DNA from: a virus
Taxonomy: Duplodnaviria; Heunggongvirae; Uroviricota; Caudoviricetes
IMG/VR virus record: IMGVR_UViG_3300032007_000008
DNA length: 64,000 bases
Strand: one strand, 5' to 3'
The notes below the pieces were generated by a model. That model worked only from the letters and a program-made list of their open reading frames with translations. It had not been told where the DNA came from and searched no databases. Positions 8,816 to 63,452 of this stretch are shown one piece after another. The position numbers and the translations under genes were made by a program. How positions within the stretch are numbered: the stretch's first letter is position 1; the number at the start of each line of letters is the position of its first letter.

Positions 8816-10771
8816 ATGAGCACCACCATAGACATTACAGACAAGATTTGCCAAATAAAAGAAGCTAATAAGGCGTACAGATGCGGCGTACCAATCATGA
8901 GCGACACGGATTACGATAATCTCGTGGACGAGGTTGCGTCTGCCATGGGCAAGGATTTCGAGTCAATCAGAAATACTCTTACTGAAGAAAAAGGCAGTGT
9001 TCATCATCCATATGCGATGGGGTCTTTGGGGAAAATAAAGGCATATGACGACGAATCTCCTATAAAAAAGTGGATTTACAACCATATACCAGACAACGGT
9101 GATGGAACAGAGGGAATGTTTGTGTCTTCCAAAATAGATGGATGTTCGGCAAGGCTTACATATAAAAACGGCATATTGGTGGGTGCTTCTACACGTGGCG
9201 ATGGTTCTGATGGCGTTGACATACTGCATAAGGTTTCGATGTTCGTAGATACGAAGATAGCAAAAACGTTCAGCGGTGACATACGTGGAGAAATCACTCT
9301 TACAAGAGAGACTCTTGAGCAACTGTCCTCATTTAACGGCAAAACATACAAAAACTTGAGAAATGCCACAGTCGGTTTGATAAATTCAACAGACGCTTCT
9401 GATGAGGAATATTCGTTTTTGCGGTTTTTCCCATATGAGATAATGGGACATACCGGCATGACGAAGGGCGAGCAGTTCAAGAAACTTAAAGCGTTGGGAT
9501 TTACTACTGCGCTTTATCGCGAGTTTACAGATATCTACAATTCGGCATTCAATGCGAAGGATGCATATGACGATGCTTTGATGGCGATATATAATTCGTT
9601 TTCAGAGGAAGCTCCATTCGACATAGATGGATTGGTAATTTCGGATTTAAGGGATAATGAGGTGTTTGAAGACCAATTCATTCCTGAAAAAACCGTTGCC
9701 GTAAAGTTCAATCAGATGACTGCCGAATCGACTCTTATTGACATACAGTGGAGGCAGTCGAAATCTGGGAAGCTGCATCCTGTTGGAATAATCGAACCAG
9801 TGGTTCTTGGGGGTGCAGAAGTTGTCGCGGTCACGTTGAACAATCTAAGATATATCAAAGAGCTTGGCGTAAAGTATGGTTGCCGTGTGAATGTCCTTAA
9901 GTCAGGCGACATAATCCCAAAGATAGTTGGAGTTTCGCATCCAAATCCAGAAATAGAGACGGATATCATATATCCAGAATATTGTCCTTCGTGTGGAAGT
10001 GAGCTTTCATACGATGTAGACCCTCTGTTTCCGATGTGCGAGAATGAAAAATGCGTTGGTGTTCTTGCAAGTAGGATTCTCCATTTTCTCAGAAAGCTGA
10101 ATATCAAGCACCTTAGCCTGAAAACTATCAAAAAATTCAGATTGTTTTCGATATCTGACATTTTGAACATACAACCAGATGGAAGTGCGGTAAAGGCAAC
10201 TTTCATAAAAGATTTGGATTCGAGGATGTTTGGAGTCGATAAAGAGACTCTTCTTACGGCATTTGACTATGATGGAGTTTCCGAAAAGATAATAGAGAAA
10301 ATGCTCGGCCATTACGGATACGACTCTCTTTTGAATTCTACAGCCGAAGAGCTTAAAAAATCCCTCCCATACGGAGTAGGCGACAAGTTCATAGACAAGT
10401 TCAAAAATGGCTGGGAGCGATGCAAGGACGACTATAACCGTATAATTTCAGACAGCAGATATCATGGACAGAATGTCGTCAAGAGCAAAGTTACTGCTAT
10501 AAGCGGCATTTTGGGCGGAAAAGGATTTGTGGTTACTGGCGATTTGAAAACTATGGGAAGAGAGGAATTCAAGAAAACCGTCATAGAGAATGGCGGAGTT
10601 TACCAGTCTGGAATATCGAAGAAGACTGCGTTCCTTGTCACCAACGACGCATCCACAGGCACTACAAAAATAAAGAAGGCCAAAGACCTTGGCGTTCAAA
10701 TCATAAACGAGGAAAAGTTCCTGAACATGATTCAGCACGGAAACGGAAATTCAGATTTTTCTATTTTTTGA
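8816..10771 (+). CDS. ligA: NAD-dependent DNA ligase
   Basis: MSDTDYD, KIDG, STRGDG, RGE, NLRNA, DGLV, AVKF, SGDIIP, Zn finger CPSC...C, C-terminal BRCT (FVVTG...KKAKDLGV). Confidence 0.95.
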   Translation: MSTTIDITDKICQIKEANKAYRCGVPIMSDTDYDNLVDEVASAMGKDFESIRNTLTEEKGSVHHPYAMGSLGKIKAYDDESPIKKWIYNHIPDNGDGTEGMFVSSKIDGCSARLTYKNGILVGASTRGDGSDGVDILHKVSMFVDTKIAKTFSGDIRGEITLTRETLEQLSSFNGKTYKNLRNATVGLINSTDASDEEYSFLRFFPYEIMGHTGMTKGEQFKKLKALGFTTALYREFTDIYNSAFNAKDAYDDALMAIYNSFSEEAPFDIDGLVISDLRDNEVFEDQFIPEKTVAVKFNQMTAESTLIDIQWRQSKSGKLHPVGIIEPVVLGGAEVVAVTLNNLRYIKELGVKYGCRVNVLKSGDIIPKIVGVSHPNPEIETDIIYPEYCPSCGSELSYDVDPLFPMCENEKCVGVLASRILHFLRKLNIKHLSLKTIKKFRLFSISDILNIQPDGSAVKATFIKDLDSRMFGVDKETLLTAFDYDGVSEKIIEKMLGHYGYDSLLNSTAEELKKSLPYGVGDKFIDKFKNGWERCKDDYNRIISDSRYHGQNVVKSKVTAISGILGGKGFVVTGDLKTMGREEFKKTVIENGGVYQSGISKKTAFLVTNDASTGTTKIKKAKDLGVQIINEEKFLNMIQHGNGNSDFSIF

Positions 10772-28276: not shown

Positions 28277-29977
28277 ATGATTACTAATACGATAATGGCG
28301 CAGAAAGAAGCGCGTAGGAAGATATTGTCTGGCGTTAAGACAGTTGCAGATGCAGTAACGTCAACGCTTGGGCCTGGCGGAAGAAACGTTATTATAGAGA
28401 ATTTGAACGGAATGCCTCCGACAGTCACGAAAGACGGTGTGTCTGTTGCACGTTCCATAGTCCTAAAAGACAATTTCGAAAACATGGGAGCGCAGATGGT
28501 TATTGAGGTTGCTTCCAAGACTAACAGCATGTGCGGTGACGGAACTACTACTGCAACTCTGTTGGCGTATGAGATATACAAAAGAGCCGTCGAGTGCGTG
28601 GAGAACGGAGAAGAGCCTATGAATGTCAAAAGAAGCATGCTTCACGCCCTTGAGTTCGCGAAGGACGAGATTAGGAAGCAGGTTGTTCAGGTATCTTCCA
28701 AGGACGATTTGAAGAACATAGCCACAATATCAGCCAACGGTGATACTGCAATCGGAGAGATGGTTGCCGACATAATATCGCAGACCGGAAAGGACGGAAT
28801 AGTCGTTGTTCAGGAAGGAAGCAGCCTTGAGACAACTTGGTCGGTGACAAAGGGTGTTCGTCTCGACAGCGGTTTCATAAGCCCCTATTTCTCCAACGAC
28901 CCAAGCGGAAAGTGCGCATGCTCATTTGCAGATGCAAGAATTCTGTTTTTCGCCAAGAAGATTTCAAACGTGAACGAACTGTTTCCTGTTATGAACATAG
29001 CAGCTCGCGAAAAGTTTCCTCTTGTGATAATAGCGTTGGACTACGACCCAGACGTTATATCTACTCTCGTTGTGAACAGGCTTCGCGGAAACATACAGTG
29101 CTGTGCCATAAAAGCACCTGGTGTGATGGAAAGCATGAAGCTTGAATTCATGACGGATGCGGCAATAGCCACCGGCGGCACCGTTATCAATGACGATTTG
29201 GGAATAAAGCTTACGGATGTTACGGAAGAGCATCTCGGAAAGGCCAAGAGGGTTGACGTTACACTGCAATCTACAACGTTCATAGATGGAGCTGCGGACA
29301 AGGAGAAGTTTGACATGCGCGTGAACGAGCTTCGCAGCATGATGGAATCGGACAACATATCCGAATACTATCGCCATTCCTACAAAGAGAGATTAGCAAA
29401 GCTTGTTGCAGGAATAGCCGTTGTGAAGGTTGGCGGAGAAACACAGTCCATAATTCACGAAAAGCGGGACAGAATCGATGACGCGATATGCTCTACAAGG
29501 GAGGCAAGCACAGGCGGAATAGTCGCAGGCGCTGGCAGCACATTGCTGAAGATTGGAATAAAGATGGCATATCGCATATCAGAAGATTTGGCAAAGGATG
29601 TCGGAATCGAATCTCCGATGGTCGATACAGATAAGAGGTGCGAGCTTGGAAGCTTCATAGTCGGGCAGTCCATGCAGTCGTCATTCAAGAAGATTATAGA
29701 GAATGCCGGATACAGCGGAGACGAAACCGTTAGAAAGTATATAGAGAAATGTCGCGATAATGCAGAAAGCGATGAAATCGACAGGTCTGGATTCGATGTA
29801 CGGAATTTAAGTTATATGGACGACCTTGTTAAGGGTGGGGTCATAGACCCTGCAAATGTCGATATCTCTGCTCTTACGAATGCCGTGTCCGTGGCCGCTC
29901 TATTGATATCAACAGACTGTATGGTTGGAATAAACCAGGATTCCATACCAGTTGTTCAGACTGTTCAAGATGCGTAA
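28277..29977 (+). CDS. groEL: chaperonin GroEL
   Basis: TLGPGGRNV, TKDGVSVA, GDGTTTAT, ISANGD, ERLAKL, GIVAGAG, GVIDP. Confidence 0.97.
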   Translation: MITNTIMAQKEARRKILSGVKTVADAVTSTLGPGGRNVIIENLNGMPPTVTKDGVSVARSIVLKDNFENMGAQMVIEVASKTNSMCGDGTTTATLLAYEIYKRAVECVENGEEPMNVKRSMLHALEFAKDEIRKQVVQVSSKDDLKNIATISANGDTAIGEMVADIISQTGKDGIVVVQEGSSLETTWSVTKGVRLDSGFISPYFSNDPSGKCACSFADARILFFAKKISNVNELFPVMNIAAREKFPLVIIALDYDPDVISTLVVNRLRGNIQCCAIKAPGVMESMKLEFMTDAAIATGGTVINDDLGIKLTDVTEEHLGKAKRVDVTLQSTTFIDGAADKEKFDMRVNELRSMMESDNISEYYRHSYKERLAKLVAGIAVVKVGGETQSIIHEKRDRIDDAICSTREASTGGIVAGAGSTLLKIGIKMAYRISEDLAKDVGIESPMVDTDKRCELGSFIVGQSMQSSFKKIIENAGYSGDETVRKYIEKCRDNAESDEIDRSGFDVRNLSYMDDLVKGGVIDPANVDISALTNAVSVAALLISTDCMVGINQDSIPVVQTVQDA

Positions 29978-57856: not shown

Positions 57857-58136
57857 CATGTCGATAGGTCTTCGACCGTCGAAAAATCATCTTTTGGTAA
57901 AAAGAGTTTCTGTAGAGGAAACAGTGGGGGGAACGAATTTCGTTCTCCCCAAGGATTTCCATCAGAAACCGATGAAGTGCGTTGTCGTTGACATTGGCGA
58001 TGAGCATCTCGATACTGGGATGGAGTTAAAGGTTGGAGATACCATTCTGCTGCCGAAATATGGGAGCACGAAAGTTATAAAAGATAATGAAGAGTATCAT
58101 CTTTGCCATATAGATGATATAATTGGAATTTTATGA
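57846..58136 (+). CDS. groES: co-chaperonin GroES
   Basis: LRPSKNHLLVKR...GG..VLP...VVDIG...LKVGDTILLPKYG...DDIIGI. Confidence 0.88.
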   Translation: MPTDMSIGLRPSKNHLLVKRVSVEETVGGTNFVLPKDFHQKPMKCVVVDIGDEHLDTGMELKVGDTILLPKYGSTKVIKDNEEYHLCHIDDIIGIL

Positions 58137-58744
58137 AAAACGACGAAAAGAACAAGCCATCCAATACAGTCTCCAACGAGCAGGCGGCAGAGCCAATAGA
58201 AAAGAACTGCACAAACTATGTAGACGGGAATAGCGTTTTTATTCTTGGAGCATTTGACGATACTATATCTAAGAACATCGTGCCAAACCTTGTAAAGATT
58301 ATAAATCAGCAAAAATCCCTAAAAAATGGAAAAATTGATTTTTATATCAATTCATATGGCGGGTATTGCTCTGAGCTGTACAGCATATTGTCTTTGGTCT
58401 CGCTTGCCAAATCAAACGGAATAAAGATAAACACGTTTAACATGGGTATTGCATATAGCTGTGCAAGCATACTTTCAGTAGTCGGAGATGAGAGAAAGAT
58501 GTTTAAATGCGCAAAGAATCTCATGCATTTGGGAGAAACCTTTTCTTCAAGCTCGACCTTTATGCAATTGGACAGAAATCACAAGAGGCAGAAAGACCAT
58601 TTCAACAACATAGTCTCAATGTATGCCGCGCACACTAAGCTTACTGAAAAGAAAATACGTGAGCTTATGTCTGATAATTGCTGCTATCTAAACTCAAACG
58701 AATGCTTGAAATTTGGACTTGTTGATGAAGTTTGCGATTGTTAA
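58133..58744 (+). CDS. clpP: ClpP-like protease
   Basis: FYINSYGG, GIAYSCAS, LMH, ECLKFGLVD. Confidence 0.8.
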   Translation: MKNDEKNKPSNTVSNEQAAEPIEKNCTNYVDGNSVFILGAFDDTISKNIVPNLVKIINQQKSLKNGKIDFYINSYGGYCSELYSILSLVSLAKSNGIKINTFNMGIAYSCASILSVVGDERKMFKCAKNLMHLGETFSSSSTFMQLDRNHKRQKDHFNNIVSMYAAHTKLTEKKIRELMSDNCCYLNSNECLKFGLVDEVCDC

Positions 58745-59078: not shown

Positions 59079-59154
59079 GGAGGTGTCGTATAGCCGGTCT
59101 GTACAGTGGACTGAAAATCCATCGGTGTTGGTTCGACCCCAACCGCCTCCACCA
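59079..59154 (+). tRNA. tRNA-Phe(GAA)
   Basis: Cloverleaf, loop CT-GAA-AA, encoded CCA. Confidence 0.9.
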
Positions 59155-62027: not shown

Positions 62028-62263
62028 TTATTTAATTTCATGCAACGGCTGCTGTATCGATGATTTGCAGAATTCAAAGTTCTGTCAACAGACAATGACG
62101 CAATAATCGATATGGTTTTAACAGCGAAAGCCTTTGCAGACTTGCAACCGCCGAGGCAGATGGAGGCGGCGGACGATGGAGGGGTGTCGCTCACCCCGTT
62201 ATCCGTATGAACCATTGGGAGTGCTGCGTCCCGCTCAGCCCGTCGAAGACGGACAACGCAGAT

Positions 62264-62379
62264 AAGTCACATGCAGCAATTAAAATTCTCCACCATTTGG
62301 GGAAATAGCATAATTGGTTAGTGCGTCCGTCGAAAGGCGGAAGGTTCTGGTTCGAATCCAGATTTAAATTGGTGACTTG
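62264..62379 (+). ncRNA. GCAGCAA cassette D with permuted, anticodon-less tRNA
   Basis: AAGTCAC/GTGACTT enclosing TTCTCC-ACCA-ttt-GGGGAA, D arm, GAAA-capped stem, T arm. Confidence 0.7.
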
Positions 62380-62391
62380 TTTTCAATCTTT

Positions 62392-62457
62392 AAGACTCAT
62401 ACAGCAACAAGCTATAAGCAATTGACAGTTAATCAATCACGCTAATACCGAGTCTTG
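62392..62457 (+). ncRNA. ACAGCAA cassette E with isolated anticodon-like hairpin
   Basis: AAGACTC/GAGTCTT enclosing ATTGA-CAGTTAA-TCAAT. Confidence 0.65.
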
Positions 62458-62461
62458 CCTT

Positions 62462-62543: not shown

Positions 62544-62631
62544 TGCTAGGTAGACCTGTAGGGAGCAGGGGCAGACTGTAAATCTGTTGTGTTAACGCAC
62601 CCTGTAAGTTCGACTCTTACCCTAGCAACCA
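62544..62631 (+). tRNA. tRNA-Tyr(GTA)
   Basis: CT-GTA-AA, variable arm, ACCA. Confidence 0.88.
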
Positions 62632-62805
62632 GAGAGGTGGCAGAAAAGCAGATGCAGTGTCTTTCGAGGACTGGCCATTGTCGATAATAGACGGTTTGTA
62701 AAAACGTTCCTTAAGGTTTCCGTCTGTGGTCAAGGAGTTAGCTACTCATGGAATTACCACTAATCGCATATGGCATTGGAGGTTCAAACCCTCCCCTCTC
62801 AACCA
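62632..62805 (+). ncRNA. tRNA shell with about 100-nt structured insert in the anticodon arm
   Basis: GAGAGG/CCTCTC-A-ACCA, D arm, AGTG/CACT, T arm GGAGG-TTCAAAC-CCTCC. Confidence 0.65.
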
Positions 62806-62806
62806 T

Positions 62807-62890
62807 TGGCATGTAGCGCGTATACGGTGATAGCTGCTCTTAAGTACATAGAGCCAACAAATGCGGGTTCGACTCCTGCCATGCCTACCA
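62807..62890 (+). ncRNA. atypical tRNA with 9-nt anticodon loop
   Basis: GGCATG/CATGCC, GCTCT-TAAGTACAT-AGAGC, canonical T arm, ACCA. Confidence 0.6.
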
Positions 62891-63101
62891 TCCTCGGTGA
62901 TAACCACCTTGGCAAAAACCCATACGAACGTGGTATGGTCGAGCTGTGAGAACAACGACACAGAGAGCAGTGGAACTTATATCCATGTAGCGACAGTTCT
63001 TCGTGACTGCCAGACGCGATATGAAATCCCTTGAATGGGTCTGGTTTCAGTGTGAGTGAGGCAGGCTACGCTGTGTAAAAGTCACTGCCAAGATTTTCAA
63101 T

Positions 63102-63357
63102 GGTGGATAGTTCAAATGTAACAGAATAAAGGGCATGTTCCGAGGGAACGAGGAGCAAGTAGTGTCACAAAAGGTGTGTGCAGTTCTTGACAATCTTCAC
63201 GCAGCGAGCCAGGTGACCCTGGGGTTGGCGAGTTTGGATTGGGATTGGAATGCAAGTTCTGTCCCAGTTGACCATAGGCTCTCGCCTTGAATTCGTTCGT
63301 ACTAAAAAATCCCCAAAGCCCCGCAAGACGGAGGGTGAAAATCCCTCGCCACCGCCA
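63102..63357 (+). ncRNA. tRNA shell with about 180-nt insert in the anticodon arm
   Basis: GGTGG/CCACC-GCCA, D stem GTTC/GAAT, GGGC/GCCC, T arm GAGGG-TGAAAAT-CCCTC. Confidence 0.6.
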
Positions 63358-63364
63358 ATTTCAT

Positions 63365-63452
63365 CACGCCGTGCGCCGAATGGATAAGGCATCGGCCTTC
63401 TAAGCCGACGGGAGTTTTCCCATTGCAGGTTCGAGTCCTGTCGGCGTGGCCA
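63365..63452 (+). tRNA. tRNA-Arg(TCT) with long variable arm
   Basis: CT-TCT-AA; GGGA-gttt-TCCC variable stem; GCCA. Confidence 0.85.

Follow-up and report, generated by a model that had tools for sequence, protein, structure and literature searches.

Judged by how its sequence has changed between two phage lineages, the 174-nt element at positions 62632–62805 is a real, selected, structured RNA gene in which a tRNA frame carries a 101-nt domain at the position of the variable arm. With moderate confidence, we read the element as a tRNA-derived, non-decoding, stable non-coding RNA, in which the frame would ensure maturation and stability and the variable-arm domain would act as the effector. 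A preliminary description had proposed a tRNA shell around a separately folded cargo; that much fits all the sequence evidence, since frame and insert are equally conserved (76–78% identity between lineages) and the helices of the insert are compensated, whereas the site it assigned to the cargo was the anticodon loop and the site found is the variable arm.

The window, by which we mean the whole 64,000-nt stretch analyzed, corresponds to bases 195039–259038 of a 291,479-bp IMG/VR phage record. This metagenomic phage is T4-like: its large terminase is ∼30% identical to those of T4-type phages, and its other genes include UvsX, a DnaB-type helicase, a DNA polymerase, GroEL, Cpn10, ClpP, and DnaK. 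A plus-strand array of 39 tRNAs and a tmRNA (ARAGORN calls) begins at window position 59079 and runs beyond the window end, and every ARAGORN-called RNA in it has an encoded CCA. The tmRNA (locus L003, 5995–6333) was identified by both ARAGORN and Rfam. The first base of the element directly follows the CCA of tRNA-Tyr(GUA), and the element is single-copy, with no paralogue in the 291-kb phage genome. The DNA directly 3′ of it (62806–63104) is an indel between lineages. A neighboring RNA of ∼260 nt (63096–63357) has acceptor and T stems that covary over four phage lineages and ends in NCCA, and Rfam returned weak, sub-threshold YrlA matches elsewhere in the array, off the element.

Three homologues were found, giving four sequences in all that represent two lineages. 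The copy in L019 is 97% identical to that of the window and, with a 1-nt insertion, measures 175 nt. The copy in the ENA contig L005 (9534–9705) is 78% identical over its full length and measures 172 nt through a 2-nt loop deletion, and the copy in L020 is of the L005 type, also 172 nt. L005 was reached via homologues of the upstream ClpP-like protein and their contigs, and L019 and L020 via cluster members of spurious ORFs in the array. L005 carries the entire syntenic array from ClpP to DnaK, with ClpP 81% identical. In the more distant relatives L013, L017, and L018, ClpP lies beside other genes with no tRNA array there, and in the latter two DnaK directly follows ClpP. Another contig, L009, ends exactly at tRNA-Tyr and is therefore silent on whether the element follows. 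Among the samples that contain this phage or relatives of it are ERZ27256887, SRR9008757, ERZ27298988, and ERR12352649.

No homologue of the element was returned by megablast against GenBank phages, by searching IMG/VR loci through ClpP and terminase, or by an exact T-arm/acceptor pattern, and three motif patterns run over IMG/VR, JGI metagenomes, and GTDB genomes gave no further copy. One motif pattern matched two marine contigs, where 29 nt of arm B (defined below) recur exactly within a glyoxalase-family ORF that has no tRNAs near it; we treated this match as unrelated to the element. A phmmer search with the spurious ORF lying over the L005 element found only homologues of the neighboring structure called “scaffold 2” and none of the element, and in a protein-coding test no frame was open across the element in both lineages.

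The features of the element and of the tRNA that it adjoins are as follows, in window coordinates:

62544–62631, plus strand: tRNA-Tyr(GUA), called by ARAGORN, 96% identical in L005; adjoins the element with a spacer of 0 nt.
62632–62637, plus strand: 5′ strand of the acceptor stem, GAGAGG, equivalent to tRNA positions 2–7; pairs with 62795–62800 and is invariant in all four sequences.
62640–62655, plus strand: D-like arm with a 3-bp stem (GCA/UGC) and a loop of 8–10 nt.
62657–62673, plus strand: 17-nt hairpin at the position of the anticodon arm, one base past the D stem.
62674–62774, plus strand: 101-nt domain at the position of the variable arm, with a long closing stem that ends in a three-way junction.
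62674–62685, plus strand: 5′ strand of the long stem, pairing with 62763–62774; 12 bp in L005, with a 3 × 3 internal loop in the window.
62689–62725, plus strand: hairpin A, built of an AGACGG/CCGUCU stem and an inner AAAC/GUUU stem, its tip formed by the invariant palindrome CCUUAAGG.
62726–62760, plus strand: arm B, a GUGGU/ACCAC stem around the hairpin GAGU-UAGCU-ACUC and an invariant single-stranded UGGAAU.
62763–62774, plus strand: 3′ strand of the long stem.
62778–62794, plus strand: T arm, GGAGG-UUCAAAC-CCUCC, with a canonical loop in the window.
62795–62805, plus strand: 3′ strand of the acceptor stem (CCUCUC), A at position 72, the discriminator, and the encoded CCA.

The tRNA-like arms of the preliminary description are confirmed within its coordinates, with GAGAGG/CCTCTC and GCA/TGC paired, a T arm of GGAGG-TTCAAAC-CCTCC, and AACCA ending at 62805; the acceptor, D, and T stems are invariant between lineages. 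The acceptor stem has six Watson–Crick pairs and a 5-nt 3′ tail, AA-CCA in the window or AC-CCA, the discriminator being A in the window lineage and C in L005. The sole candidate for nucleotide 1 is A62631, the final base of the tRNA-Tyr CCA, which gives an A1·A72 mismatch. The 7/5 geometry of acceptor and T stems is found only when A62631 is counted as nucleotide 1 opposite A72, which explains the 5-nt tail. When the domain is deleted, ARAGORN likewise starts the frame at A62631, and when R1, a covariance model of the element, is matched to real tRNA-Gln and tRNA-Ser, their alignment begins at tRNA position 2. U8 and A14 are kept in the window and L019, and the frame follows canonical numbering with a 3-bp D stem like that of class II tRNAs.

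Between the D-like stem and the T arm the element has a hairpin and then the domain, the order in which a tRNA presents its anticodon arm and its variable arm. An insert replacing the anticodon loop, as first described, does not fit this order: the 17-nt hairpin holds the anticodon-arm position, and the domain starts right after it and leaves 3 nt to the T stem. When R1 is aligned with real tRNAs over their full length, the domain becomes a deletion and the variable arm of tRNA-Ser(GGA) falls on the base of the long stem. The tRNA closest to the R1 frame among canonical tRNAs is tRNA-Gln, consistently in five different arrays (23–31 bits). As an independent check, deleting element positions 43–143, 44–142, 45–141, 46–140, or 48–138 from the copy in the window leads ARAGORN to call a tRNA of 74–84 nt. 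By contrast, ARAGORN made no tRNA call on the intact element when anticodon-loop introns of 0–400 nt were permitted, and placement of the insert in the anticodon loop is thus rejected.

Conservation of the element can be set against that of the phage genes. In the flanking genes, comparison of the window phage with L005 gives identities at four-fold degenerate sites of 45% for ClpP, 38% for the Tad3-like gene, and 39% for DnaK, values near saturation, whereas the element is 76% identical in its 5′ frame, 78% in the 101-nt domain, and 77% in its 3′ frame. An identity of 78% over the element against ∼40% at four-fold sites shows that it is under purifying selection. Counting against our main reading, the element is the least conserved part of its surroundings, its 78% identity falling below that of tRNA-Tyr (96%) and of the 500 nt upstream (92%).

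A structure of 51 pairs was written from the pairwise comparison and then counted on the four-sequence alignment. Standard pairs occupied 92% of structured cells, compared with 39–51% when partners were slid by 1–3 columns. Thirteen pairs changed between lineages, seven of them on both sides; all seven are Watson–Crick in L005, and four of the seven are Watson–Crick in the window too. These four pairs, which changed both sides yet stayed paired, are distributed over the long stem (46:140, A:U in the window to G:C in the L005 lineage, and 47:139, U:A to A:U), hairpin A (61:91, C:G to U:A), and arm B (96:128, U:A to C:G). The other double changes (26:42, 27:41, and 103:117) turn a mismatch in the window into a Watson–Crick pair in L005. 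Hairpin A shows an A:U to G:U change and arm B a G:C to G:U change; three one-sided changes were either wobble-compatible or cost one terminal pair. Two of the stems named in the preliminary description are borne out here: AGACGG/CCGTCT is real and covaries through its C:G to U:A change, and GAGT/ACTC is conserved with its G:C to G:U change.

RNAalifold, given no structure, arrived at this architecture as well and counted five compensatory pairs. It is matched by the minimum-energy fold of L005 taken alone, and the fold of the copy in the window has its main parts: a terminal helix, two hairpins (the first, on the 5′ side, small), a long helix that closes a multi-branched domain, and the T arm. 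The minimum free energy of the copy in the window is ordinary (z = −1.05, compared with −2.4 for L005), which counts against our main reading. So does the presence of two lineages only, whereby each covariation is a single event; the shuffle statistics are not readable as probabilities.

Part of the covariation bears on an alternative in which the element acts in cis, as a structured spacer or conformational switch in the precursor that times or directs RNase cleavage of the neighboring tRNAs. The strands at element positions 43–47, 95–99, 125–129, and 139–143 can pair in two mutually exclusive ways, and all four have changed together with both pairings surviving, as a switch would predict. 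The TGGCCA/TGGTCA helix of the preliminary description keeps four of six pairs in the second lineage and excludes two helices that each covary; it is at most an alternative conformer. Since the alternative pairing as a whole retains only 4/6 and 3/5 pairs, and since wobble tolerance makes the four-way change weak evidence, the case for a switch is lessened. With a spacer of 0 nt, folding of the element must affect 3′-end maturation of tRNA-Tyr, and other inter-tRNA stretches are also highly conserved (92%), both of which suit a role in cis; a full tRNA frame with a conserved CCA, however, exceeds the needs of a spacer. We regard this alternative as unlikely.

Whether the element could work as a tRNA turns on features that differ between the lineages. 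The window and L019 keep U33, A37, the UUCAAAC T loop, and one D-loop G at a G18-like position. L005 and L020 have G33, U37, and no G18 in a D-like loop that is 2 nt shorter, and their T-loop sequence, UCACGAA, is no longer a T loop and folds as a 6-bp stem with a pentaloop, yet every helix is retained. Accordingly, the cloverleaf frame (7/5 stack, U8, A14, and a UUCRA T loop) is present in the window and L019 with the domain deleted and A62631 counted, and absent from L005 and L020, for which ARAGORN gave no call in any deletion. The hairpin at the anticodon-arm position is similarly uneven. In L005 it has 5 bp and a 7-nt loop, U-N-UCG-N-G, and the window keeps three of those five pairs; alternatively, the window can form ∼7 bp interrupted by a bulge and capped by a UUCG tetraloop and L005 a small loop, so that the two lineages differ in register. 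A joint change at positions 33 and 37 (U-A to G-U), as if they were paired, is seen in the RNAalifold result. Across the two lineages, no one register keeps a 7-nt anticodon loop with U33 and a purine at 37, and the anticodon that ARAGORN read in the domain-deleted window frame is UUC, not UCG.

Loss of U33, of the purine at 37, of G18, and of the T-loop consensus in the second lineage, together with the register slip, makes a decoding tRNA unlikely, and conservation of the helices in the face of lost decoding and elbow features points away from a ribosomal tRNA. These observations weigh on the alternative of a functional, aminoacylated tRNA whose variable arm has grown enormously, either an Arg-like UCG decoder or a class II-like tRNA charged via the arm, acting on the ribosome or as an amino-acid donor. 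In its favor, the frame fits canonical numbering (U8, A14, 3-bp D stem, T arm), the CCA is kept in both lineages, and the window lineage retains U33, A37, and a proper T loop. The hairpin loop contains an invariant UCG, the A20-like position still has an A and C35 is kept (A20 and C35 are determinants for ArgRS), and CGG is the sole Arg codon without a cognate phage tRNA among the ARAGORN calls. The arm, however, to our knowledge exceeds every known variable arm several-fold in length, and at 101 nt it would probably clash on the ribosome. Hairpin register and loop size are not conserved, the discriminator is A or C, and ARAGORN rejects the L005/L020 frame even with the domain deleted. As in class II tRNAs, the D stem has 3 bp and an extra helix separates the anticodon stem from the T stem; known variable arms are ∼10–25 nt, compared with 101 nt and a three-way junction here in place of a simple hairpin with conserved identity elements. 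Unusual long-arm tRNAs do occur in phage tRNA clusters (PMC5389517). Unlike class II tRNAs and allo-tRNAs, one lineage of the element is without the T-loop and D-loop consensus and U33, and the discriminator is not conserved. On balance, a charged tRNA is decidedly unlikely.

An interrupted tRNA gene is a further possibility, with the domain removed from the variable region by self-splicing, RNase III-type excision, or another enzyme to leave a tRNA of ∼75 nt; the preliminary description had likewise mentioned a novel intron. Removal of the domain does give an ARAGORN-accepted tRNA in the window lineage, and the long closing helix would bring both junctions together. However, the would-be exons of L005 and L020 do not make a recognizable tRNA and are nonetheless conserved as much as the insert. 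Rfam gave no match on 62632–62805 either at the gathering threshold or with E as high as 10, the RF00005, group I intron, and tmRNA models included. A group I intron in a tRNA gene has a P3–P8 catalytic core, spans ∼200 nt or more, and is inserted in the anticodon loop, and the tRNA introns of bacteria and phages known to us are group I introns at that site; this candidate was rejected for a 101-nt insert in the variable region with no Rfam match. An archaeal-type intron was rejected as well, the junction helix having a symmetric internal loop in the window and being fully paired in L005, with no bulge-helix-bulge. No tRNA-splicing endonuclease (PF01974) or RtcB was found in the phage genome, nor any of the CCA-adding enzyme families. 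A search of the phage for Rnl1 ligase was empty, as was its control everywhere, so that absence of this ligase is not demonstrated. We hold an interrupted tRNA gene to be quite improbable, and the novel intron of the preliminary description finds no support here.

A decaying, functionless tRNA pseudogene bearing an integration scar or captured fragment would account for the lower conservation of the element relative to its neighbors, for the eroded tRNA consensus in one lineage and the lost anticodon-stem pairs in the other, for the 29 nt shared with the glyoxalase-family gene on two marine contigs, and for the downstream indel at 62806–63104. It is already disfavored, and in our estimate highly improbable, given 78% identity against ∼40% at neutral sites, the invariant acceptor, D, and T stems, the 7 of 13 changed pairs that changed on both sides (7/7 Watson–Crick in L005), and a full length kept in both lineages save the 2-nt loop deletion (172 nt) and the 1-nt insertion in L019 (175 nt).

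Membership in a known family of tRNA mimics, whether as a small tmRNA or as a bacterial Y RNA (YrlA), has a negligible claim: acceptor stem, T arm, and CCA do enclose a large internal domain as in tmRNA, and YrlA models do match the array below threshold, off the element, but the equivalent of G3:U70 is an A:U pair (its absence had been correctly noted in the preliminary description), there is no tag reading frame and no tmRNA call here while a true tmRNA lies elsewhere in the array, no YrlA model (RF02553) matches the element, the phage has no Ro60/TROVE or RtcB gene, and the tRNA-like module of YrlA is internal, not terminal (PMC4201824). An antisense regulator of phage genes was a separate candidate, rejected because the longest complementarity in the phage genome is 14 nt, the same as for shuffled sequences. 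The rest of our weight goes to something that we have not considered.

We return to the main reading, a non-decoding stable RNA built on a tRNA frame. Under it, the element would be transcribed within the polycistronic tRNA precursor, and host RNase P would recognize the minihelix of acceptor stem and T arm together with the CCA, a single cut freeing both the 5′ end of the element and the 3′ end of tRNA-Tyr. The paired ends and CCA tail would then shield the product from exonucleases and polyadenylation, so that it might accumulate as a tRNA does. In this way the tRNA shell would provide processing and stability, as the preliminary description had supposed. The working part would be the variable-arm domain, whose invariant, single-stranded CCUUAAGG tip, UUAGCUA loop, and UGGAAU segment may bind a protein or RNA partner. 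The processing and stability steps draw on two precedents. RNase P acts on non-tRNA substrates, and tmRNA is among the RNAs that it processes (PMC11143913). In engineered tRNA scaffolds the acceptor, T, and D arms are retained, and cellular enzymes process the chimera and spare it from degradation (PMC3753655). Counting against this reading, the element would be an irregular RNase P substrate, with an acceptor stem of 6 bp and a tail of 5 nt, and the analysis turned up neither a partner nor a target for it.

The likenesses to these and other known systems are partial. Cargo in the engineered scaffolds of Ponchon and Dardel replaces the anticodon stem-loop, whereas the cargo of the element sits in the variable arm and a hairpin resembling the anticodon arm remains. 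Like tmRNA, the element has an acceptor/T-arm module and CCA around a large structured insert; unlike tmRNA, it is without G3:U70, a tag ORF, or a pseudoknot ring, and it has a D stem and an anticodon-like hairpin.

The nearest parallels are in phage T4. Extra stable RNAs were recognized in phage tRNA clusters as early as the 1970s, among them T4 RNA C (species 1 RNA) and RNA D. The genes rnaC (139 nt) and rnaD (119 nt) directly follow tRNA-Arg in the T4 tRNA cluster, and in rnaC two larger hairpins are enclosed by paired ends and a canonical T arm (CCGGG-UUCGAAU-CCCGG). The element likewise abuts a tRNA inside the tRNA cluster of a T4-type phage and has tRNA-like ends. It differs in that hairpins stand in place of the D and anticodon arms of RNA C, whereas the element keeps both arms in reduced form and has its extra domain as the variable arm; RNA C as annotated also is without the encoded terminal CCA found in the element. 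R1 gave no match to the T4 tRNA region at E up to 10, and thus no detectable sequence or structure homology to rnaC or rnaD, so the element is an analogue of RNA C and RNA D rather than a member of their family. The roles of RNA C and RNA D are unknown according to reviews and a 2022 omics study (PMC3014915, PMC9697503).

A broader and more tentative proposal, which we consider possible though doubtful, is that tRNA frames serve phage tRNA operons as a general natural chassis for carrying cargo RNAs of unrelated kinds, several of which would lie in this array. The element, with its 101-nt variable-arm cargo, and the ∼260-nt RNA at 63096–63357 would be two examples. Each cargo would be a distinct effector, e.g., a decoy or sponge for a host tRNA-binding enzyme or defense nuclease, and host tRNA-processing machinery would mature and stabilize each of them. 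If this were true, T4 RNA C would be the long-unexplained first example of the class.

Short of that proposal, the element would be a second, independent case of an extra RNA in phage tRNA clusters, and one of clearer build, with a recognizable frame and a separately conserved domain. If it is expressed as predicted, a phage would be making natural use of the tRNA-scaffold trick that biotechnologists devised to stabilize recombinant RNA, and the variable arm would be a new insertion site that leaves the other three arms in place. The conserved 101-nt domain with its invariant loops would, in that case, offer a tractable handle on such RNAs during infection. The element also shows a tRNA gene part-way through exaptation, with the elbow and anticodon-loop features already gone in one of its two lineages.

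The inter-tRNA stretches of the array (window 62140-62460), which include stem-loops with an ACAGCAA motif, share about 92% identity with L005, an ENA contig carrying a syntenic array and a second-lineage copy of the tRNA-shaped element, compared with ~40% identity at four-fold coding sites. At this level of conservation, they are selected RNAs and not spacers. The features of the array considered here are as follows.

Features within the element and the surrounding tRNA array
Window 62674-62678, 62726-62730, 62756-62760 and 62770-62774: four strands of the element (element positions 43-47, 95-99, 125-129 and 139-143)
Window 62807-62887: weak tRNA-like gene (Rfam, 22.9 bits)
Window 63096-63357: scaffold 2, in a conserved block from about 62924
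Window 63365-63452: tRNA Arg(UCU) by ARAGORN, 88 nt
L003 5995-6333 (G000 259494-259832), just past the window: phage tmRNA, tag GNDYRMAA

Within the element, two pairings of the four strands are possible: the supported fold combines a:a' with b:b', and the alternative combines a:b with b':a'. Element positions 46, 96, 128 and 140 all differ between the lineages and both pairings survive, a doubly compatible change that may reflect a conformational switch or coincidence. A 29-nt stretch of arm B of the element, GTCATCGAGTTAGCTACTCATGGAATTAC, was found to be identical at L027:11763-11791 and L028:12892-12920, in both cases inside a glyoxalase-family ORF on a marine metagenome contig lacking tRNAs; the identity exceeds chance expectation in length, and the flanks differ.

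The scaffold 2 RNA shows strong conservation. Its block of ~440 nt (62924-63363) shares 79% identity with three further loci (L021, L024 and L029, on four contigs; L022 and L023 are duplicates of L021), at which the flanking tRNAs differ. Both the terminal stem (GGTGG/CCACC in the window vs. GCCGG/CCGGC in L005) and the T-like stem (GAGGG/CCCTC vs. GTTGG/CCAAC) covary, the 3' end is G/T-CCA, and an Rfam search with E up to 10 returned no match. Window 62806-63104 is missing from L005, where scaffold 2 begins within ~10 nt after the element; ARAGORN called the weak tRNA-like gene in this interval as a second Tyr(GUA) at a relaxed threshold only.

The tRNA called Arg(UCU), retained in L005 at 9987-10074, has a class II shape (3-bp D stem and 5-bp variable-arm helix) and discriminator G73, which are hallmarks of serine identity, not arginine. 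AGA is the commonest Arg codon in the phage.

The DnaK-locus region is an insertion hotspot; the two examples below are from relatives.

Insertions beside the DnaK locus
L004 5465-7742: IS605-type TnpB (OrfB_IS605/Cas12f-like) and resolvase
L017 5628-7346: IS605-type TnpB (OrfB_IS605/Cas12f-like) and Y1 transposase

The phage carries its own tmRNA within the tRNA array, and it also encodes GroEL, Cpn10, a ClpP-like protease and DnaK (coordinates given: window 28277-29977 and 58133-58744). The closest named cellular relatives of the phage DnaK belong to Kiritimatiellae, Lentisphaerae and Verrucomicrobia, a kinship that hints at the host of the phage.
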